64,000 bases of DNA from Candidatus Nanohalarchaeota archaeon (GCA_022729235.1 JALDAJ010000001.1:544001-608000), one strand, 5' to 3'; positions 11,626 to 61,460 are shown, numbered from the stretch's first letter. A program made the numbers and translations. Notes: generated by a model not told the origin, from the letters alone.

Positions 11626-11698
11626 TGGCAGGGCTGGGATTTGAACCCAGGTCCGTACCGCCCCGGGGTACGATGATAGTCCACTACACTACCCCGCC
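11626..11698 (-). tRNA. tRNA-Pro(GGG)
   Basis: GGCGGGG...GTACC-CCGGGGC-GGTAC...CTGGG-TTCAAAT-CCCAG-CCCTGCC-A cloverleaf, 73 nt. Confidence 0.9.
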
Positions 11699-11855
11699 AA
11701 AATCACCTTACGCGATTTTGTGTGGATACAAAAACTCTCGCGAGTTTCGCACCCGCCGAACTTCTGAACTCGAAGACCTAGAGAGTCTTCTGTGACCAGC
11801 AACCTCGGAGAGGTTGCGGAGGTTCGATCATCATAAGGCATTCAAAGAATGCCTT
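11699..11855. repeat. Hairpin-doublet cluster upstream of tRNA-Pro with duplicated tRNA 5' end
   Basis: cccgcc repeated at 11693 and 11752; tgtggatac linker shared with the tRNA-Ser flank; further hairpins at 11769-11819 and 11835-11855. Confidence 0.75.
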
Positions 11856-37144: not shown

Positions 37145-38227
37145 TTACTCTTCAACTCTGGTCTCTAACCAGTCAATGAATGTTGTGCGGTTTTTGTTGT
37201 CTTTTTCTGCTTCGAGTGCTGCTTCGTAGTCTGGTTCGTCGAGTTCTTCGAGCGCGTCTTTGGCGTCGCTGATTGTGTTGTCGACGATGTCCTCGTAGTC
37301 GGCTCCGCTTGATGTCTCGTCCTCGTCTTTTGTCTCTTCTTCGTCTCCAGTTTCTTCTTCCTCTTCTGCTTCTTCAACATCTTCGTCTTCCGTCTCTGGT
37401 TCGTCCTCGACTTCCTCAGGTTCTGTTTCTTCGGCTTCTTCCTTGATTTCGTCTCCTCTTTCCTCGAATACGTCTCTTACTTCGTTTTTGGAGATATCTT
37501 CGGTTTCTACTTCGAGTTCTTCCATTGCTTCTTCGATTCCTGCCGAGGTCATGTCGTCTGCTTCCACTACTACTCTTTCGATTCTTTCTTCCTGTGGAAG
37601 TGTCTCACCGTGGTCAATGACCTCATGTAGTATCTCTTCTTCGACGTCGACGTCCCGGTGTTTGAACTCTGGCATAGATTCCATTATTCTTACCTTGACG
37701 CCGATTGCGCCGGGCTTTGTTTTTGCGAGTTCGTATGCCTCGTCAACGTTCTCTTTGGAAGTATTTCCACATCTTTTCACGTAGCCGAACGAGAATTTTT
37801 CTGTCCGCCCTCTGTTACCTGATAGTTTGCCGGCGATTTCGATTTCTGCCCCTATGACTCCTGACTCCTTCATCCTGCGGAGGTAGGTGTATCCTACTCT
37901 CTTTGTTCTTCCGCCTTTTTCGAGCCATGAAGCCATCGATTTTGCGACTATCTCTGCGTCCCCGTCAGGATTCTCTATCTCGTTTACTTCTATCTGCGGG
38001 TTTTCAAATCCGAATTCTTCCTCCATATCCGCGGTGAGTTCACGAATCCGGGATCCGCCTCTTCCGATTACGAGTCCTGGTCTCTGTGCGTATACGACTA
38101 TCTTTGTTGATGTAGGTGTTCTTACGATTTCGGAGCGTGAGTATCCTGCTCCTTCTAGCTCTTCTTCCAGGTATTCATGCATCCTTACCTTTCTAGCGCC
38201 TTTGTCGATGAACTGTTTTTCCTGCAT
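37145..38227 (-). CDS. rps3: Ribosomal protein S3 (uS3) with long acidic C-terminal extension
   Basis: [30 protein letters not shown]. Confidence 0.95.
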
Positions 38228-38640
38228 TATCGTTCACCTACGATTATCTTTACGTGTGCTGCTTTCATGGTTCTTCCACGGTGTCTTTTCGGTGTTCTAA
38301 ACTCTCTGCCCTGGTTGGTTATGAACTCCTGGATTTCCAGTTCGTCAATGTTCAGTCCTTCGTTTTCCGCGTTGTTCTTCGCGTTCCTTATGACGCCGAG
38401 TACTGCTTCTGCTGCCTTTACAGGGTAGCGTGCTTCTCCCTGTCCGGGTTTGTGTCCTGCACCTGAAAACTTTGTGTATGGTACAGGAAGCTCTTTTTCG
38501 ATTACTCGTTCAAGTTTGTTCTCCGCTTTCTCCACGGAGTCTTCTTTCACGAAGCGCCCGATTTCGGTTACGTCCTTCCAGGACACTCTTAGGTTGTGTC
38601 CTTCTGCTCTTGCCTGGTGTGGCTGTGTTTCTAGCGTCAT
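38227..38640 (-). CDS. rpl22: Ribosomal protein L22
   Basis: VS.K...EI, RYPVKAA, NA..NAE..GL; start MTLET. Confidence 0.93.
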   Translation of the reverse strand: MTLETQPHQARAEGHNLRVSWKDVTEIGRFVKEDSVEKAENKLERVIEKELPVPYTKFSGAGHKPGQGEARYPVKAAEAVLGVIRNAKNNAENEGLNIDELEIQEFITNQGREFRTPKRHRGRTMKAAHVKIIVGER

Positions 38641-38650
38641 TTTATCGTCT

Positions 38651-39034
38651 TTACTTGAGCGGTACGTGCTGTGAGGACCGTGTTGCTCCGAGTCCTGGTG
38701 CACTGTGCTGTACTTCTTTCCGGGTTTTTGCGAACTCTCCCAGGTAGTGTCCCAGCATCTCTTTTTCGATGTCTACTGGGACGAAGTCCTGTCCGTTGTA
38801 TACGTGGACTGTTTTACCTACCATTTCTGGTACTACTATCATCGACCTGAAATGCGTCTTGACCGAGTCCTTATCTTCAAGGTCTTCAAGTATTTTTTTC
38901 TCCTCTCTTCTAAGTCCTCTTTCGAGTTTCCTTTTCCCTCTTGAGTTAAGAAGTTCTGCAAACTCGTCTAGAGTCATTTCCTGTAGTTCTTCGAGCTTGT
39001 GTCCTCTGAACTTCCATTCCTCGTCATTACTCAT
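38651..39034 (-). CDS. rps19: Ribosomal protein S19 (uS19)
   Basis: KTH.R.M..VPEMVG, YNG..F, M.GHYLGEF..TRK, GATRSS..VPLK. Confidence 0.96.
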   Translation of the reverse strand: MSNDEEWKFRGHKLEELQEMTLDEFAELLNSRGKRKLERGLRREEKKILEDLEDKDSVKTHFRSMIVVPEMVGKTVHVYNGQDFVPVDIEKEMLGHYLGEFAKTRKEVQHSAPGLGATRSSQHVPLK

Positions 39035-39092
39035 CTCGAAAACACCTCTGATGTTTTCTGGGTTCTTGAAACTCTACGAGTTTTACTCATCT
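39027..39092 (-). mobile_element. Putative 56-bp hairpin-doublet insertion with 10-bp target duplication TTACTCATCT
   Basis: Direct repeats at 39027-39036 and 39083-39092 flank two hairpins. Confidence 0.7.
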
Positions 39093-39802
39093 GAATCACC
39101 TGAACTCTTCTTGTTACCTGTTCTCCGTGCAGAGATGCTTCCTACCTTGCTACCTGGTGAGGCGTGGCGCGAAACTGTCTTCGGCTGTCCTGGCTTTGCA
39201 GAACCTCCGAATGGGTGGTCGACCGCGTTCATTGCTACTGCGGAAACCGTTGGGTACTTCTTGCCTCTTGCCTTCATCGCCTTGCTCTTATTTCCTGCCT
39301 TGACGAATGGTTTGTCTTTTCTTCCGCCACCTGCAACCTTTCCGACAGTGGCTCTGCAGTTAGCATCCATCTTCTTGAACTCTTTACTTGGTAGCCTTAT
39401 TCTTACACCGTCTTTCTCATGTGTTACAACGAAAGCGTATGTTCCAGAAGATCTAACGAGTTTACCTCCGTCATTCGGCTGTAATTCGATGTTGTGAATC
39501 GGTACTCCTTCAGGGATTTCCCCGAGTGGTAGTACGTTTCCTTCTTCGATTGGTGCGGAGATTCCGACTTCGATCTCGTCTCCGACGTGAAGGTTTTCAG
39601 GAGCAAGGATGTTTCTTACGTCACCGTCCTCGAACTCCACTGCTGCTACCGGCGCGGTTCTTGCGGGATCGTGGACTATATCTACGACTGTCCCTGTCGT
39701 TTCGGCGTTCTTGTGCTCCACATCGCCCTTACCCCTGTGGGTCTTGGCCTGCCACGTGGAGCTTCCTTTTCCTCTTCTCTGTTGTCTGATTGGTGATCCC
39801 AT
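39083..39802 (-). CDS. rpl2: Ribosomal protein L2
   Basis: HDPAR.AP, GGKLVRSSG, AMNAVDHPFGG. Confidence 0.97.
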   Translation of the reverse strand: MGSPIRQQRRGKGSSTWQAKTHRGKGDVEHKNAETTGTVVDIVHDPARTAPVAAVEFEDGDVRNILAPENLHVGDEIEVGISAPIEEGNVLPLGEIPEGVPIHNIELQPNDGGKLVRSSGTYAFVVTHEKDGVRIRLPSKEFKKMDANCRATVGKVAGGGRKDKPFVKAGNKSKAMKARGKKYPTVSAVAMNAVDHPFGGSAKPGQPKTVSRHASPGSKVGSISARRTGNKKSSGDSDE

Positions 39803-39815
39803 CTTGGTAACCTCT

Positions 39816-40085
39816 CTAAATCATGCCGAGCCGGGTCGCGACATCCATCGCGTCGTCTTCCGCGCTCAGCCTGACGAAAGCCTTTTTCTTGGCCTGTGGT
39901 GTGATAGTAGTGTTTACTTTTTTAACCGTGACACCGAACAGTTCTTCGACCGCGTCTTCTACCTGGTTCTTGTTCGCGTCGATGTCAACCATCAGTACAA
40001 GCGTATTATCCTCGTCTACCTTGTCCATCGCTTTCTCTGTGAGGTGCGGGTTCTCGATTATGTTCCATGCCTGTTCTTCTTCCAT
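39816..40085 (-). CDS. rpl23: Ribosomal protein L23
   Basis: P..TEKA, NTLV..V, KVNT, KKA.VRL. Confidence 0.95.
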   Translation of the reverse strand: MEEEQAWNIIENPHLTEKAMDKVDEDNTLVLMVDIDANKNQVEDAVEELFGVTVKKVNTTITPQAKKKAFVRLSAEDDAMDVATRLGMI

Positions 40086-40091
40086 TGTTTA

Positions 40092-40847
40092 TCAATCCAC
40101 GAAGAGCTGTTCTTCTCGGAGTTTTTCGAGAGCTTCGTCGCTCCAGACGATAAGCCTTCCTGGTTGTGTGCCGGGTGCTAGAAGCTCTGCGTTAAGGTTT
40201 TCCACGCGGACTGTTTCGACTCCAGGAAGGTTGTTCGATGCCTGGAATACTCCGTTGTCGTCCGCGACAACTAGTAGAGGACCAACCTTTCTCTTGTATT
40301 TTCTTCCCCTATTGGCTCCTCTGCCGGCTCTTACTTTCTTCTCGCTGACACGTTCGAGTTCTTCTTCGAGCCCGAGGTCTTCAAGTGCCTCTTTCAGTTC
40401 TGCAGTCTTTTCTATTCCCTCGATATCTTCTACTATAGGCAGGTTGCCGTCGTATTCGTGTCTTTCCTGTACAAGTTCGGCGTCGTTTGATGCTGCGATT
40501 CCGGACCTGATGGCTTTTCTTCTCTCTTTGTCGTTGATTTCTTCGTCCCAGTCTTTCTTCGCTTTAGGTCCGTGCGCTCTTCTACCGCCTCTGGTGTTCG
40601 GTGATTCCGCGCCGATTCCAGAGATCTGGCTTCCTCTTCTGAATACGATTTTCCGCGGTGTCCTTGACTGTCCGCGCCCTTTCTGTCCTCTGTACGCGTT
40701 GTTTCTTTTCTTCCAGTACGTTACGTGCTGTAGCCCTGCTTCTTCTGCGTGACCGTATGGTTGACGGTTCTTGGACTGGATGGATAATACTGCGCGCTTT
40801 ATGATATCCGGTCTTACTCTTTCGTTGAACTGCTCTGGTAGCTCCAT
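40092..40847 (-). CDS. rpl4: Ribosomal protein L4
   Basis: RPDII.RAV, RQPYG, GGRRAH.P, RAG.G..RGR, LAPG..PGRL. Confidence 0.95.
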   Translation of the reverse strand: MELPEQFNERVRPDIIKRAVLSIQSKNRQPYGHAEEAGLQHVTYWKKRNNAYRGQKGRGQSRTPRKIVFRRGSQISGIGAESPNTRGGRRAHGPKAKKDWDEEINDKERRKAIRSGIAASNDAELVQERHEYDGNLPIVEDIEGIEKTAELKEALEDLGLEEELERVSEKKVRAGRGANRGRKYKRKVGPLLVVADDNGVFQASNNLPGVETVRVENLNAELLAPGTQPGRLIVWSDEALEKLREEQLFVD

Positions 40848-40854
40848 TTTCTAT

Positions 40855-41826
40855 TCACCTGTCGATGTGTGTTATCTCTGGTTCTCCTGGGTTTTTGTCT
40901 TTCCTGAGTGCGGTTCTCAGCCTTACGAGTCTCTTTTCCGGTCCTGGAACAGAGCCCTTGATTATTATGTAGTTAGAATTGACTTCTCCATAGTTCTTGA
41001 ACCCGCCTTCGCGCTGAACTTCTTCCGGGTCCTCTCCGTGGTCGATTATCCTCTTGTTGAGCTCTGTTCTATTGTTAAAGCCCTGTTGTCCGGGCAGTGG
41101 AACTCTCCATGAAAGTTTGTCAGGGTGCCACGGTCCGACGTTTCCCGCCTTTCTCCTCTTCTTCTGGGTCTTGTGACCGAGCTTCTTGATTCCGTAACGC
41201 TTGACAGGTCCTTCGACCCCTTTACCTTTGGTTACTGCGACTACGTCCGAGTACTCTCCGGGCTCGAAAACGTCCGAGAACTCGATTTCCTTTCCAATCA
41301 TTTCTTCCGCGTATTCCAGCTGTTCTTCTACGTCTCCGCCGAGCGCTACTTCAAAGTTCTCCGCTTTCTTCTTGGAGAGTCCTGCCTCCTGGGGCTGTGT
41401 GTGGACAAGTAGGCGGACCTCTGTAAGTTCGTCTTTGATTTCTTTAGCTGCTTCGAGGTTGTCCATATTTCCTTCTTTCGGAACGTCAGTTGCTCTCTGT
41501 AGCTCTTTTGCGGGCGAGTCTGTCCAGACCTCGGTGAAGACCTGTTTGCCCGTGTTGATGTCTTCAGTGTAGAAGCGTGCACCGTAAACTCTGAGGGGCG
41601 GTGCTTCTAGTATCGTTACTGGTGTCGCGATTTCCTGACCCTGCGTGGCACCTTCTGTATCGTCTATCATCAGGACTCTGCTCATCCCTACCTTGTAGCC
41701 CGCGAATCCGAGCGGTTTCAGTTCACCTGTTTCTTCCCACGTATCTATCTCTGGGTAGATCCTTTCCGCCCTTACCTTGGGCTTGTATCCGAGTGATCCG
41801 CTTCTTGGTACGCTTGGGTCTGACAT
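40855..41826 (-). CDS. rpl3: Ribosomal protein L3
   Basis: PR.GSL, GFAGYKVGM, TKGKG..GPVKR.G, G..GPW.P, KGSVPG. Confidence 0.97.
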   Translation of the reverse strand: MSDPSVPRSGSLGYKPKVRAERIYPEIDTWEETGELKPLGFAGYKVGMSRVLMIDDTEGATQGQEIATPVTILEAPPLRVYGARFYTEDINTGKQVFTEVWTDSPAKELQRATDVPKEGNMDNLEAAKEIKDELTEVRLLVHTQPQEAGLSKKKAENFEVALGGDVEEQLEYAEEMIGKEIEFSDVFEPGEYSDVVAVTKGKGVEGPVKRYGIKKLGHKTQKKRRKAGNVGPWHPDKLSWRVPLPGQQGFNNRTELNKRIIDHGEDPEEVQREGGFKNYGEVNSNYIIIKGSVPGPEKRLVRLRTALRKDKNPGEPEITHIDR

Positions 41827-41840
41827 AGTTGATTATTCAC

Positions 41841-41984
41841 CTCGAAACTGCCTGGCAGTTTCTGCGATTGCATGAACTCCTCAGGAGTTCAGCAAGTTCC
41901 ATAGGCCTCGCAAGAGGCTTGTCCATCCGAGAACTCGAAACTCCATATAGGAGTTTCTGCGACCCCGGAACCTTAGGCTCCGGG
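41841..41984 (-). repeat. Five-hairpin cluster in the rpl3 leader, including two CTCGAAACT...AGTTTCTGCGA units
   Basis: Units at 41841-41867 and 41934-41962; other hairpins at 41873, 41905 and 41964. Confidence 0.75.
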
Positions 41985-42054
41985 CATCTAGATGGTAATT
42001 CAACAGTCACAACCAAGTTTTATAAAGGGAGCGATAGGGTGATTAGAAGCGCAA

Positions 42055-42249
42055 CTATGTATTGTAATCCAGGATGTCTTCGGCTATCTTTCTGAACTCC
42101 TCGCTGTCTAAATCTTCTATCTCTTCCCTGACTTCTTCCTCGGGAAGGTCGGCGAGCATGTCCTCTATCTCTTCCTGAAGTTTCTCCTCTATCTCCGCGT
42201 CGCCGGTGTTCGTCCTTGAGAACTCGTGCCGTATTTTTTCTAGGGACAT
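42055..42249 (-). CDS. Small acidic hypothetical protein
   Basis: 64-aa ORF directly after rtcB. Confidence 0.5.
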   Translation of the reverse strand: MSLEKIRHEFSRTNTGDAEIEEKLQEEIEDMLADLPEEEVREEIEDLDSEEFRKIAEDILDYNT

Positions 42250-42263
42250 GTATTCTACTGTAG

Positions 42264-45110
42264 CTAACCCTTTATGTTCGCGATGGGTGTTGTGCGCACG
42301 ACTTTCTCTCCGATTCCGAGTTCGTCGGAGACCTTGATTACCTCGTCCACGTCCTTGTAGGCGCCCGGCGCCTCCTCCGCGACGGTTGAGCCTGAGGCAG
42401 CCTTCACGTAGACTCCGTCGCGCTCTAGCTCCTGCATTAAGCGTTCGCCGTAGTAGTCCTGCTTCGCCTGCGTTCTTGACATGAGCCTTCCGGCGCCGTG
42501 TGCCGTAGAGCCGAACGATATCTCAAGCGATTCCTGTCCGCCAGACAGGATGTAGCTGGAGGTTCCCATAGTTCCTGGGATGAGGACGGGCTGTCCGACG
42601 TCTTGATACACGTCTGGCACCTCTTCACGCCCAGCAGGCATCGCTCTAGTCGCGCCTTTACGGTGTACCAGAAGCTCCTTCTCCTCTCCGTCGACTTCAT
42701 GCATCTCTTTCTTGGCGATGTTGTGGCACACGTCGTACACCAGGTCTACGGTTACGTCTTCAGCGATGAGGTTGAGCGCTTCCCTGACGGCCTCCGTCAT
42801 GGCCTGCCTGTTTGCCCACGCGAAGTTGGCGGCGGCGTTCATCGCGTTCCAGTAGTCCTGGCCGAGCCTATCTCCGAGTGGTGCGTAGATCAGCTCCTTA
42901 TCAGGTATGGCATCAACTATTTCAGGGTAGTTCTCCTCGAACTTTCTGAGGTACTCGGTGCAGGTCTGGTGGCCCAGTCCCCGTGACCCGGAGTGAATCA
43001 TAACTACTATCTGGTCTTCTTCCAGGCCGTATGCCTCCGCCTTTTCATCGCTGTATACATCCTCGACTTTTTGAACCTCGAGGAAGTGGTTTCCGCTTCC
43101 AAGGGAGCCGAGCTGACCGACTCCTCTCTTTTTGGCTTTTTCTGGCACTTTGCTGGCATCTCCGTCCAGGCGACCGTTTTCCTCGCACCGTTCCAGGTCT
43201 TCCTCCTTTGCGTGTCCGTTCTCCAGCATCCATTCCATTCCTTTCTCCAGTATCTTTTCCAGGTCGTCGCGGTCGATTTCCAGGTATCCTCTACCACCAA
43301 GTCCGGTAGGTACCTTACTGAAGAGGACGTTTGCAAGTTGCTGTTCCTTGCCCTCTATGTCTTCGTAGGTCAGGCTGGTTCTGAGAACTCTTACTCCGCA
43401 GTTAGATACTATAAACTGGTTTGAAATGAAATTGTGTGCTTCATGTTTTACTCCGATGTCATAAACCTTTTCTTTTCCTGTTTTTTCTATGTGCTTAACT
43501 GTTGCTTTCACTGCTAGATTGTCTTTCACTTCTATATCTTCTGTGAATTCCTCGTAGCCGGGGAATTCTTTGGGCGGTCTTGAAGTGGTTTTCCTGCCCG
43601 AGTATATGCTTCTCTCTATAAACCTGTTGTTGATATCAAATCTCTGCTTTAGTTCCTTAGGTGCTACATTATTTTCATAGAGTTCAACGCATTTCTCTGC
43701 GATTTTCTCTCTTCTCTCAATAGCTTTCTGCTTGGTCTTAAGGTACTGTGTTGCTTTAACTGCTTTCTTCTGTTTCTCAAGGTTGTATCTGTATCCGATT
43801 CTGGTGAAGAACCGGATCAGGTTTTCAGAGTCATTTTTTATTCCGAGTCGGAACCTGATAACTTCTCCATTTTTGTTCTCGTTTGTTTCAAATTCTTCGA
43901 TCTGGTTTGTTTCTATGTCCATCTGTTTCAGGACTCTCTTGATTTCCTGCATAAACTTTCTTCCGGATTCCCTGGCTTCAATGTTCTTGTTCTGTGATAC
44001 CTTGGGACAGTAAAGATTTTTGTCATGCTGCGCTTTAGGAGAACTCATTTCTGCACCGAAAAAGGCGGATAGATAAAGTGCGACCTGCCAGTCTGCAAGT
44101 TCTGAGAGTTGCTCTGGTGTTGTGAACTCTTCTTTCGTCTTAGTTCCTTCAGGAACTCCGATTTTGGTCAGTAGTTTCCTGAAGGCCTTCGATGTTGACT
44201 TGATACTGTATTCGGTTCTCTGGAATTCTCTGTCTTTTACCTCGTGTTTTCTTTCTCTTGAATAGATGGGGGAGGGCTTGAATCCGAGTTCTTCGATGTC
44301 TTTCTGTATCTGCTTCAGGTCTTTTTCCTTACCGTAGAAAGTAGTTTCTCCGTGATTGTTGAAAGACCCGTCACCTGTGTGGAATCCTGCCAGCTTCAGC
44401 AAGATGTTGAACTCTCTGTCAGTAGTTTTCAACGGCAGTAAATCTCTTTTCTCCAGCGCCTGCACGAGCTGCTGGCTCTCGTCTTTGAAATCTTCTCTCG
44501 TGAGAACCTCTTTTTCTTTAGGGTCTTCGTCAGGAAGGCCCTTGAACGGTCGTAGGTATACTTGTGATCCTTCAGAGATCTTATCAAGTTTTTTCATACC
44601 TTCCGTTGTAAGGAAAGGATGGTCTCCTGTTGCCTTGATTTTCTCGCCAGTTTCTGTTTCGACTTTGTATACTTCTTTTTCTTCTTTTTCTGTGAATAAC
44701 TGGATTCGTGACTCGACGGGTTTCTCGGCGGTTACAACCGCCTTTTCTTTATGGAAGTTATTCTTTAGTTTTTCAATCTCTGTAGATCTCCCGAACTCCA
44801 ACAAAACCTCTGAATCGCCCGTTAAGCAGTTTATATCATAGCCGATTCCTCCGGGGCTTATAACTCCGTTTTCAGTGTCTACAGCTGCGACTCCTCCGAT
44901 AGGGAAGCCGTAGCCCTGGTGGCCGTCTGGCATCACGATAGAGTATTTCTGGATGCCGGGCAGTGTCGCAACGTTTTTCACCTGTTCCAGGGTGTCGTCC
45001 TGTTTGATTTCTTCCAGCAGTTCTTCTGAGGCGTAAACTCTGCCAGGGACGTTCATTTTTCCCTCCTTCGGGATTTCGTAGACGTTCTCTGATACTTTGT
45101 TTAGTTCCAT
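42264..45110 (-). CDS. rtcB: RNA ligase RtcB (intein-containing)
   Basis: MPD.H.GYGFPIG, GYDIN|CG, GSGNHFLE, HSGSRG, HN, HRKGA, HGAGR. Confidence 0.96.
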   Translation of the reverse strand: MELNKVSENVYEIPKEGKMNVPGRVYASEELLEEIKQDDTLEQVKNVATLPGIQKYSIVMPDGHQGYGFPIGGVAAVDTENGVISPGGIGYDINCLTGDSEVLLEFGRSTEIEKLKNNFHKEKAVVTAEKPVESRIQLFTEKEEKEVYKVETETGEKIKATGDHPFLTTEGMKKLDKISEGSQVYLRPFKGLPDEDPKEKEVLTREDFKDESQQLVQALEKRDLLPLKTTDREFNILLKLAGFHTGDGSFNNHGETTFYGKEKDLKQIQKDIEELGFKPSPIYSRERKHEVKDREFQRTEYSIKSTSKAFRKLLTKIGVPEGTKTKEEFTTPEQLSELADWQVALYLSAFFGAEMSSPKAQHDKNLYCPKVSQNKNIEARESGRKFMQEIKRVLKQMDIETNQIEEFETNENKNGEVIRFRLGIKNDSENLIRFFTRIGYRYNLEKQKKAVKATQYLKTKQKAIERREKIAEKCVELYENNVAPKELKQRFDINNRFIERSIYSGRKTTSRPPKEFPGYEEFTEDIEVKDNLAVKATVKHIEKTGKEKVYDIGVKHEAHNFISNQFIVSNCGVRVLRTSLTYEDIEGKEQQLANVLFSKVPTGLGGRGYLEIDRDDLEKILEKGMEWMLENGHAKEEDLERCEENGRLDGDASKVPEKAKKRGVGQLGSLGSGNHFLEVQKVEDVYSDEKAEAYGLEEDQIVVMIHSGSRGLGHQTCTEYLRKFEENYPEIVDAIPDKELIYAPLGDRLGQDYWNAMNAAANFAWANRQAMTEAVREALNLIAEDVTVDLVYDVCHNIAKKEMHEVDGEEKELLVHRKGATRAMPAGREEVPDVYQDVGQPVLIPGTMGTSSYILSGGQESLEISFGSTAHGAGRLMSRTQAKQDYYGERLMQELERDGVYVKAASGSTVAEEAPGAYKDVDEVIKVSDELGIGEKVVRTTPIANIKG
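43401..44828 (-). mobile_element. Intein with LAGLIDADG homing endonuclease, 476 aa
   Basis: Starts CLTGD after GYDIN; block B ATGDHPF; LAGFHTGDG; VYDI.V...HNF; ends VSN before extein Cys; lower GC. Confidence 0.93.
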
Positions 45111-46501: not shown

Positions 46502-46726
46502 CGCCGGGACTGTTCGAAGACTCTAGAGTTCCTGCATTGTGACCGGTGTTGCCGGTCGACCACCGGAGGTGGTCACTATGATCGAACTTGGTAAAGTTCG
46601 CCGGGACTGGGTTCGAAAATCAAAAGATTTTCTGCAACTCGAAACCAGAACTTGGTTTCTCGGATTTGAACCCTGAACTTCTCGTGAGAGATGTGAGGAT
46701 AATCAAATCCAGCAAGGCGTCAAAGA
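46502..46726. repeat. Partial tRNA-Ser 3'-end copies interleaved with hairpins
   Basis: cgccgggactg at 46502 and 46599; ggatttgaaccc at 46662; hairpins at 46583, 46612 and 46638. Confidence 0.75.
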
Positions 46727-46815: not shown

Positions 46816-46923
46816 AGATTATAAATCTGCTGTGGATACAGAAACTCTTATGAGTTCCGAAGATTGTAAAATCTTCAGGACGTAGAAGATCCGTAGTGGA
46901 TCTTCGAGTTTCGCATCCCGGCA
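46816..46923. repeat. Nested hairpin doublets upstream of tRNA-Ser with duplicated 5' end
   Basis: catcccggca at 46807 and 46914; inner gagtt duplication at 46852 and 46906. Confidence 0.75.
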
Positions 46924-59946: not shown

Positions 59947-61404
59947 TTACTGGGCTTCAAGCCCTTCTTCCTCAAGTTTTGCTCTAAGTGAGTTTTTCTC
60001 CATATCGTTCATTCCCGTGGAAACGTTCGCGCTCATAGCGAGATACGTTCTCAGTCCGATGTTCATACCCTCCGGTGTCTTGATAGGGTCGATGCGTCCC
60101 CACTGTGTCGGGTGCAGGTCACGCGCCTCGAAGTGCTGTCTCTCGCTTGAAAGAGGTGAGACAACATTTCTGAGGTGTGAAAGAGTCTTGATCCTGTTGT
60201 CTCTGTCAAGTCTCTGGCATACTCCTGTTCTACCTCCTACCCAGTTACCTGTCGCCATAGCTCCCATAATCTGCTTGCTGAGGGTGTCTGAGACGATTGT
60301 GGACTGGAGAGATGGTAGGCGTCCACGTTTCGCGCTCTTCCTGAAGTTGTACTTCATGCGGGCGAGCAGACCCCATTTCCCGAGGAACACTGACCTGAAC
60401 TGCATCTCCAGCAGTTCTCCCGCCAGGTTGAGCCTCTTGTTTGCGTAATGGTCCATGTCGTCTTCATTGATGTCGCCCTTTCCTAACGCGATGGTGTTTC
60501 GTATCATGTTTGCGAGGAACTCTGCCTTTTCCTCGCGGTACTCAGGTTCCTGCCCTAGGTGTGGTAGCAGGTAGTCGTCTAGTATGCTTTCTACACGTTC
60601 TTCGACATCCGATGTGATTCCTGCCTGGTTCGCCACGTATTCGTAGGCTTCTTCCTGGTTGCTCGCATCTGTTTCGTACATGTTCAGGTAGACATCGCTC
60701 GCGTACTCTTCTCCAATAGCCTGTACGATTTCACGGTCAGTCTCGTACCCGAGTGCCCTGATAAGTGCGACTGCCGGTGTTTTCTTCACGTTAGCGAACG
60801 AGATGTTGACGATGTCGTCATCGCGTCTGAGAACGTGTCGCTGTACGTAGCCTGCCTGTTCGGAGTTGATACGGCAGACCTGTTCTCCGTCGTCATCCTG
60901 GTAGATGGGCTTGTTGTCTGCCATCTCTTCCATGCAGATAAGCGTTTTCTCGGAGCCGTTGACTATAAAGTATCCGCCAGGGTCTTCAGGGTCTTCTCCT
61001 GCATCTCTTAACTCCTCGTCGTCCATGTCTGAGGTCCAGCACAGGTCGCCTCCGATCATTACAGGTATCTGACCTATCGTTACTTCCTCAGATTCCTGCT
61101 GTACTCCCTCGAAAATCGGTGTCATCGTGACCTTGATCTCTGAGGAATAAGTGAGGTCTCGCATCCGTGCTTCTTTCGGAAGCACCTTTCTTACGGACCC
61201 GTCTGCCTCGTTGATATGAGGTCTCTTGATATTTACGTCTACTATCTTGATAACCAGTTCCTCTCCTTCCGGGAGGTCGGGTTTAATCTCGCCTACCTCG
61301 TTTAGAATAGCCTGTATCCTGTCTTCAACAAAACGGTTGTAGGAGTCGATCTGGTGTTTAACCATGTTCTGCTCGATGAGCTGGGAGAGGAATTCTTCTT
61401 TCAC
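59947..61404 (-). CDS. rpoB2: RNA polymerase subunit B'' (Rpo2N)
   Basis: SYN.F, GGYFIVNG.E, DHY.NKR, RDLHPTQWG, TPEG; GTG start. Confidence 0.96.
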   Translation of the reverse strand: MKEEFLSQLIEQNMVKHQIDSYNRFVEDRIQAILNEVGEIKPDLPEGEELVIKIVDVNIKRPHINEADGSVRKVLPKEARMRDLTYSSEIKVTMTPIFEGVQQESEEVTIGQIPVMIGGDLCWTSDMDDEELRDAGEDPEDPGGYFIVNGSEKTLICMEEMADNKPIYQDDDGEQVCRINSEQAGYVQRHVLRRDDDIVNISFANVKKTPAVALIRALGYETDREIVQAIGEEYASDVYLNMYETDASNQEEAYEYVANQAGITSDVEERVESILDDYLLPHLGQEPEYREEKAEFLANMIRNTIALGKGDINEDDMDHYANKRLNLAGELLEMQFRSVFLGKWGLLARMKYNFRKSAKRGRLPSLQSTIVSDTLSKQIMGAMATGNWVGGRTGVCQRLDRDNRIKTLSHLRNVVSPLSSERQHFEARDLHPTQWGRIDPIKTPEGMNIGLRTYLAMSANVSTGMNDMEKNSLRAKLEEEGLEAQ

Positions 61405-61460
61405 TCGAAAACACCTCGGGTGTTTTCTGCGAGTCCAGAATCTCTTTTAGATTCGTTCAT
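61401..61460 (-). mobile_element. Putative 56-bp hairpin-doublet insertion at the rpoB'' start, encoding a 19-codon leader ORF
   Basis: ATGAACGAA at 61460 vs GTGAAAGAA at 61404; two hairpins; shares CAGAAAACA...GAGGTGTTTTCGAG with the rps19 copy. Confidence 0.65.

Follow-up and report, generated by a model that had tools for sequence, protein, structure and literature searches.

The stretch analysed here (the window) comprises 64,000 nucleotides of one strand from Candidatus Nanohalarchaeota archaeon (JALDAJ010000001.1, 544001-608000), and all positions given are those of the whole 64-kb window. Its own genome, referred to as G000, is a nanohaloarchaeal salt-lake genome of 1.03 Mb that is 95% complete. 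On the minus strand of the window, the ribosomal protein genes rpl2 and rps19 follow one another with a spacing of 48 nt between the rpl2 stop and the rps19 start. The rpl2 gene ends with ...GGT GAT TCA GAT GAG TAA, its stop codon lying at 39085-39083, and rps19 begins with ATG AGT AAT GAC. Between and across these ends lies a short structured element with its own open reading frame (ORF), whose features are collected in Table 1 together with other copies of the same repeat family in the window.

Table 1. Positions of the junction features and of related copies in the window. R1 and R2 are the covariance models described in the text; mini-ORF peptides are given without the stop.
Feature	Position	Strand	Basis or remark
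rpl2 (ribosomal protein L2)	39083..39802	minus	ORF list; Pfam PF03947/PF00181, L2 E 1.8e-43
rps19 (ribosomal protein S19)	38651..39034	minus	ORF list; Pfam PF00203, S19 E 3.5e-27
GGTGA, original Shine-Dalgarno sequence in the last rpl2 codons	39096..39100	minus	5 nt before the mini-ORF ATG (39090-39088)
Upstream copy of the 10-nt duplication, AGATGAGTAA	39083..39092	minus	Mini-ORF ATG and rpl2 stop
Downstream copy of the 10-nt duplication, AGATGAGTAA	39027..39036	minus	rps19 start codon and codons 2-3
19-codon mini-ORF, MSKTRRVSRTQKTSEVFSR	39031..39090	minus	ATG overlaps rpl2 end; TGA (39033-39031) overlaps rps19 ATG (39034-39032) as ATGA
46-nt element core between the duplication copies	39037..39082	minus	R1 76.6 bits, R2 61.7 bits
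Covariance-model match at rpl2-rps19	39032-39090		
Hairpin 1, AAACUC-GUA-GAGUUU	39069..39083	minus	RNA fold; family covariation
Hairpin 2, GAAAACAUC-AGA-GGUGUUUUC	39038..39058	minus	RNA fold; family covariation
Copy at rpoH-rpoB	61402..61460	minus	R1 83.6 bits, best score; mini-ORF MNESKRDSGLAENTRGVFE, TGA overlaps rpoB GTG
Tandem copies in the S10-like operon leader, 5' of rpl3	41838-41897, 41932-41987	minus	No coupled mini-ORF
Copy abutting the 5' end of tRNA-Pro(ggg)	11693..11754	minus	No mini-ORF
Copies flanking tRNA-Ser(tga)	46615-46659, 46853-46910	plus	

The same 10 nt stand on both sides of the spacer. On the plus strand this sequence reads TTACTCATCT, and exactly two copies occur in the window, 56 nt apart. 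Window shuffles gave 0.20 expected copies and at least two copies anywhere in 1/100 shuffles; a 10-mer common to both element flanks arose in 1/500 shuffles in a test restricted to those flanks. The predicted RNA of the junction folds into two hairpins with a minimum free energy (MFE) of -21.5 kcal/mol (z = -2.1; 5/200 shuffles were equally stable). Hairpin 2 carries GAGGUG (39043-39048) at a distance of 8 nt 5' of the rps19 AUG, and the GGUG of this motif is paired in the predicted stem. The 3' end of the G000 16S rRNA, GGAUCACCUCC, is complementary to both GGTGA and GAGGUG, and for this reason we take GAGGUG to be a genuine Shine-Dalgarno sequence. The original prediction, made from this DNA alone, had named four of these features: the exact repeat; its upstream copy as a GGTGA Shine-Dalgarno sequence with an ATG overlapping the rpl2 stop; the leader ORF with its TGA on the rps19 ATG; and a second hairpin with GAGGTG partly in the stem. 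All four were recovered, the repeat by the window-wide count, the two reading-frame features in the sequence, and the hairpin by the RNA fold.

Filled and empty junctions in related genomes

The rps19 gene was found in 39/41 related genomes, and 30 rpl2/rps19 loci, representing 30 genomes including G000, were taken for comparison. The junction was readable in 28 of the 30: locus L010 is cut off by the end of its contig, and L016 is masked with N. For L019, L024 and L035, the gaps (11, 12 and 3 nt) come from visual inspection of the sequence. A short gap of -8 to +17 nt separates the two genes at 23 of the 28 readable junctions. A two-hairpin spacer of 48-65 nt is present at four, namely in G000, in G001 of the same genus, in G006 and in G022. 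In G011 (L020) the two genes lie 319 nt apart, and the gap holds an additional open frame whose end, TAATG, falls on the rps19 start; this is another kind of insertion at the same place.

The empty site of G005 reads GGTGACAATGATGAGTAATGAC, where the overlap ATGAGTAA places the rpl2 TAA within the rps19 start; GGTGA also stands before the rps19 ATG here, as it does before the mini-ORF ATG in G000. The filled site of G000 reads GGTGATTCAGATGAGTAA[46 nt]AGATGAGTAATGAC. S19 of G005 is 83% identical to that of G000, a value equal to that of the congener G001. In a further same-genus pair, the rpl2-rps19 junction is empty in G002 and filled in G022. The direct overlap that had been expected in relatives is therefore found in G005 and also in G008 (junction ATGAGTGA), and the spacer is not conserved across the lineage. 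From this comparison of sequences, the spacer represents an insertion relative to overlapped junctions, or else it was precisely lost elsewhere. Precise loss is conceivable because recombination between direct repeats would allow deletion. Selection acts on both copies of the 10-nt duplication, since one encodes the end of rpl2 and the other the start of rps19, and their perfect identity is therefore no sign of youth.

A dispersed family of structured repeats

Going beyond the original prediction, we found that the insert belongs to a dispersed family of repeats. When G000 was searched for similar sequence, partial matches to hairpin 2 emerged that led to near-identical architectures at rpoH-rpoB and S28e-L24e. 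Because a MAFFT alignment of six copies lost structural register, a covariance model was instead seeded with three co-linear copies (R1) and realigned by Infernal; a second model (R2) was built from 26 realigned copies, 21 from G000 and five from relatives. Searching G000 with R1 returned 33 matches at E<=10, and R2 returned 47 at E<=1, or 38 after overlaps and opposite-strand duplicates were dropped. The rpl2-rps19 copy has an E value of 6e-10 against R2. In a set of 70 genomes, all Nanohaloarchaeota, 50 contained at least one R2 match at E<=0.01, with a maximum of 45 per genome, and 44 did so at E<=1e-4. The family was seen in four of the five families of the phylum, and 20/70 genomes had no match. 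A scan of positions 38000-42500 of the window against Rfam (E<=1) returned 0 matches. We also found no account of such an element for Nanohaloarchaeota, DPANN or archaea in literature searches from whose coverage subscription journals were mostly missing.

Each element measures about 46-60 nt, contains no transposase gene and is present in many dispersed copies. It consists of two related palindromic hairpins built from GAAAAYC/GRTTTTC arms. The two outer arms (CGAAAAYC ... GRTTTTCG) form an inverted repeat, and each also pairs with its own inner arm. Across the 26 aligned copies, 96.1% of stem pair cells hold standard pairs, compared to 74.3% after shuffling, and double-sided changes occur in 14/16 stem pairs. 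Compensatory cells number 79 where 21.3 are expected, a count reached in 0/500 shuffles, and pairing falls to 25-67% when the partner is slid by 1-3 columns. The stem bases GAAA...UUUC are conserved, as are the flanks GCAGAAA and UUUCGAGUG, whereas the upper stems show free variation. Both stems covary strongly, indicating that the structure is selected.

The family is found in transcribed non-coding DNA: in leaders, at tRNA flanks and at the junctions of cistrons. In G000, 19 copies have co-directional ORFs on both sides, and 28 more such copies were found in relatives. By Pfam assignment, the pairs in G000 include S28e-L24e, S6e-aIF2-gamma, S17-L14, L14-L24, an unnamed gene with L5, S5-L30 and S9-RpoN. 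Further pairs are Spt5-L11, L11-L1, L1-L10, L2-S19, RpoH-RpoB, TopoVI-B-TopoVI-A, KH-TopoVI-B, RPA-RadA and PheRS alpha-beta, and three have unnamed partners. The genes around junction copies are mostly subunits of one complex. At rpoH-rpoB, the end of the element supplies the rpoB GTG start (TTTCGAGTGA), and a GTG start at the element 3' end is also found in rpl11, rpl1, rpl14 and a radA-like gene. The proximal copy in the rpl3 leader ends with GAGGTG, 11 nt before the rpl3 ATG. Eleven G000 matches lie <=200 nt from 8/35 predicted tRNAs; as the hairpins are palindromic, the orientation of some of these copies is ambiguous. In 20/35 G000 tRNA genes, introns (30-203 nt) are predicted by ARAGORN, and one weak match (genome 721864-721908) falls within that of tRNA-Thr(tgt).

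We also compared occupancy at other ribosomal protein junctions. At rpl1-rpl10, 10 of 28 readable junctions are filled and 18 are short, and rpl11-rpl1 is filled (>=50 nt) in six genomes. Within the S10-like operon, the element occupies L2-S19 in four genomes, L22-S3 in six, and L23-L2, L4-L23 and S19-L22 in two each. One same-genus pair reads GATAAC-TAATG-[54 nt]-TAATG-GTGCAG in G002, which is filled, against GATAAC-TGATG-GTGCAA in G022, which is empty. At L14-L24, three loci (L108 of G000, L128 of G034 and L123 of G030) carry a variant fill in which hairpin 1 is formed partly from the L14 stop region (GTAAAATCAT/ATGATTTTAC), and the last L14 codons and stop (RTGGTGTAA...) are repeated right before the L24 start. 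The genomes with these variants belong to two different families, and in each case the fill corresponds to the sequence of its own locus.

Coupled mini-ORFs are a trait of the junction copies. We scored a frame as coupled if it starts -8 to +20 nt from the upstream stop and ends within a few nucleotides of the downstream start, and compared the counts to spacer shuffles; the strict criterion demanded an ATG start and a stop -3 to +4 from the downstream start. Among the 19 G000 junction copies, 14 have a strictly coupled frame (1.8 expected) and 17 a leniently coupled one (3.8 expected). The corresponding figures for relatives, where 28 of 30 copies were testable and two lacked a flank in the locus, are 24 strict (1.0 expected) and 24 lenient (3.5 expected). 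Under a similar criterion, the other 19 G000 matches, which lie in leaders, tRNA flanks and 3' regions and mostly have no long ORF on at least one side, showed 0 coupled mini-ORFs. Hairpin 1 is read in all three frames across copies (MSENRRFS, MRKSKIF, MKIRDF), so it is openness and coupling of the ends that are kept, and not the peptide. Double-length fills of 100-112 nt with three to four hairpins, found at rpl11-rpl1 (L067, G001), rpl1-rpl10 (L070, G004; L091, G015) and L14-L24 (L116, G006), still maintain a single open frame, 32-36 codons long, that runs from the stop of the upstream gene to the start of the downstream one.

Proposed translational coupling across the insertion and its alternatives

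We consider it probable that the 56 bp are a dispersed structured repeat that was inserted into an ancestral overlap of the rpl2 stop and the rps19 start, and that the mini-ORF relays translational coupling across it. The insertion itself likely consists of the 46-nt core and a 10-nt target duplication. In a study on Haloferax volcanii and E. coli, an intergenic distance of ~20 nt is described as nearly abolishing termination-reinitiation (PMC10666635); on that basis, rps19 would be expected to lose its coupling to rpl2 across a 48-nt spacer that nothing bridges. Ribosomes ending rpl2 would re-initiate at the duplicated AUG, where the old GGUGA Shine-Dalgarno sequence has been retained, and translation of the 19 codons would melt both hairpins. 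Termination at the UGA overlapping the rps19 AUG would then permit re-initiation there, aided by the GAGGUG half-sequestered in hairpin 2. In such a two-step relay, the mini-ORF would carry coupling over a distance that otherwise breaks it, and its peptide would be functionless. Since GGUG is paired in hairpin 2, independent initiation of rps19 may be disfavoured until a relay ribosome opens the hairpin, which would be the translational control switch put forward in the original prediction. Preserved coupling, which the original prediction had proposed for this locus, is supported at the level of the family by the enrichment of coupled open frames. In surviving junction copies, a single frame almost always stays open between the stop of the upstream gene and the start of the downstream gene, and hairpin 2 provides a Shine-Dalgarno sequence.

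A broader proposal is more tentative, and we regard it as possible rather than likely: the family may represent phylum-wide, self-propagating 'translational relay cassettes' that were co-opted for strict upstream dependence and spread without a resident transposase. Such a cassette would be a structured RNA unit of ~50 nt bringing its own start, stop-free frame, Shine-Dalgarno sequence and stop, and could thus settle exactly in the stop/start overlaps of essential operons. By masking the Shine-Dalgarno sequence until it is read through, hairpin 2 would make the downstream cistron need upstream translation.

A number of observations weigh against insertion with relayed coupling. Flanking duplications of at least 10 nt are present at only 2/19 G000 junction copies, with 10 nt at L2-S19 and 11 nt (GTGGTGTAAAA) at L14-L24; the core is 46 nt in both, and the L14-L24 site is empty in G001. 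At the other copies only 4-6 nt are duplicated (ATGA, TAATG, RTGAA), and these may be merely selected stop/start overlaps. Selection alone would require short duplications, since both genes survive an insertion into their overlap only if the overlap is duplicated. The search for a transposase partner covered three Pfam families in G000 only: it gave 0 matches to the Y1 transposase family PF01797, for which the same search was positive in 6/14 control genomes, and sub-threshold fragments for PF01609 (DDE; 21.4 bits) and PF07282 (TnpB; 20.4 bits). No coupled frame is present in 2-5 of the 19 G000 junction copies and in 4 of the 28 from relatives, and the gene calls used were crude ORF calls. The alignment behind the covariation counts was fitted by the model, and because the copies are related, the shuffle P-values overstate the significance. 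Furthermore, near-perfect stems in diverged copies favour structural selection in situ, which a purely selfish element does not need. For the rpl2-rps19 copy alone, an open frame is kept in 34-47% of spacer shuffles. This is unsurprising because its start and stop sit in the duplicated flanks; the significance of the mini-ORF derives from the family and not from this single copy. A search of public data for the sequence gave no RNA run, only DNA contigs from one soda-lake study. One contig from that study is identical, and no version without the insert was seen there (n=1, uninformative on polymorphism).

Stems that remain paired through many compensatory changes also favour another view, in which the family serves the host mainly as a regulatory or processing RNA module instead of being a parasite that is tolerated, and in which the rpl2-rps19 insert is adaptive. 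A module of this kind could enforce coupling through the masking of the Shine-Dalgarno sequence by hairpin 2, stabilise the transcript or provide a cleavage site, and it would be kept at junctions within stoichiometric complexes. Consistent with this idea, 16/19 G000 junction copies lie between genes for translation, transcription or DNA metabolism, including the one-complex pairs TopoVI B-A, PheRS alpha-beta, RpoH-RpoB and L11-L1-L10, and copies also occur beside 8/35 tRNAs and in the rpl3 leader. The presence of the family in four of the five phylum families and the lack of a transposase partner among the three Pfam families searched in G000 point in the same direction. However, occupancy is patchy even within genera (4/28 at rpl2-rps19, 10/28 at rpl1-rpl10), the closest relatives manage with a plain overlap, and 20/70 genomes have no match, and on balance we think a host module unlikely. 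A structured RNA that overlaps a translation start in a ribosomal protein operon could alternatively be an autoregulatory site that mimics rRNA and is recognised by L2, S19 or a neighbour. Such a site would hardly be expected to be absent from most relatives, yet the element is not conserved at this junction; the same element also occurs at the TopoVI, PheRS and RPA-RadA genes and beside tRNAs, and Rfam gave no match in the region scanned. We consider autoregulation very improbable.

The remaining explanations concern the origin and fate of the 56 bp themselves. A perfect 10-nt direct repeat, together with the frequency of open frames among shuffles of this copy, would be compatible with a spacer made by local tandem duplication or slippage, its hairpins and open frame being accidental. 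The 46-nt core, however, is no duplicate of neighbouring sequence, resembles the copies at rpoH-rpoB and S28e-L24e, and fits both family models at the scores given above, and a local origin seems highly unlikely. Direct repeats at both ends would likewise permit scarless removal from the mRNA, as by an intron of the bulge-helix-bulge (BHB) type whose excision restores the overlap. Some copies can pair CUC/GAG with a 3-nt GCA bulge below hairpin 2 in the alignment, and the weak copy in the predicted tRNA-Thr(tgt) intron would agree with such an origin. Against this, by inspection the MFE and centroid structures consist of two simple hairpins and lack the two 3-nt bulges with 4 bp between them, the lower helix is absent from the rpl2-rps19 copy, and the strong selection for an open, coupled frame would serve no purpose in an element that is removed by splicing. 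The BHB idea, which we hold to be barely credible, was dropped after inspection of the folds and the alignment.

Comparison with known repeats and coupling systems

The closest known analogue is the mycobacterial interspersed repetitive unit (MIRU). MIRUs were reportedly described by Supply et al. in 1997. In two later accounts, they are 40-100 bp repeats dispersed in operon spacers; they apparently insert at start codons, which couples an internal ORF at -4 nt, and filled sites show short direct repeats (PMC12548453, PMC3184786). By these descriptions, the present family works in a MIRU-like manner: its units are co-oriented and intercistronic, their ORF overlaps the flanking stop and start (14/19 and 24/28 under the strict criterion), and short direct repeats and filled versus empty sites are seen in both. 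In contrast, MIRUs as described there are bacterial (Actinobacteria) and vary in tandem copy number, whereas the present family resides in DPANN archaea and shows only occasional double copies. It also differs in having two covarying AU-rich hairpins, a Shine-Dalgarno sequence in hairpin 2, and copies at tRNA flanks and in leaders. Given the different domain of life, sequence homology to MIRUs is unlikely.

Among miniature inverted-repeat transposable elements (MITEs), Chunjie is said to lie within an operon without disturbing it. The present family resembles MITEs such as Nezha and Chunjie in being small and multi-copy, in lacking a transposase, and in its filled and empty sites; MITEs also have inverted termini and target-site duplications (PMC3184786), for which the family has candidate counterparts. 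Unlike in MITEs, the 'inverted termini' are the outer arms of separate hairpins, the stems are kept by compensatory change rather than decaying, a fixed duplication length is not demonstrable (10 and 11 nt at 2/19 copies), and the Pfam search of G000 (three families) found no autonomous partner. The family is partly MITE-like, in size, copy number and empty sites, and, within the three families searched, not in having a partner. Neisseria REP2 also has a promoter and heads genes, and it has no relay ORF bridging two coupled cistrons.

Repetitive extragenic palindromic (REP) sequences and bacterial interspersed mosaic elements (BIMEs) occur in many copies as short palindromic hairpins, frequently inside operons, in intergenic DNA that is transcribed. 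REPs are tied to a Y1 transposase gene (REP-associated tyrosine transposase, RAYT) and are not known to carry a coupled ORF. The family differs from REP/RAYT systems in that PF01797 is absent from G000. Identities as REP/RAYT, as an autoregulatory leader and as a BHB intron each fail a defining feature. With respect to the coupling systems of Huber et al. (2019, 2023), the empty sites seen here correspond to the classic -8, -4 and -1 overlaps, and each end of the element forms such an overlap anew. The 48-nt spacing bridged by a mini-cistron is different, and the abstract of that work does not describe a two-step relay (PMC10666635).

If the proposal is true, archaea would have in the relay cassettes a first counterpart of MIRUs, and the 'bicistronic design' of synthetic biology would have a natural form. 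The repeat colonises the most constrained non-coding sites of a reduced 1-Mb genome, the stop/start overlaps in ribosomal protein and RNA polymerase operons, and such colonisation would be possible because the element carries the means to hand ribosomes on. Since close relatives hold filled and empty alleles, these junctions offer a natural test bed for the archaeal coupling distance rule. There are also consequences for annotation: the element is the source of ~20 mini-ORFs (16-35 codons) in each genome, of the GTG at which several essential genes start, and of what look like 'long intergenic spacers' within operons. Strong stem covariation makes the family a candidate structured RNA family for Rfam. 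Finally, elsewhere in the window, ribosomal protein S3 (37145-38227, minus strand) has a long, extremely acidic C-terminal extension that makes up about the last 130 of its 360 residues.

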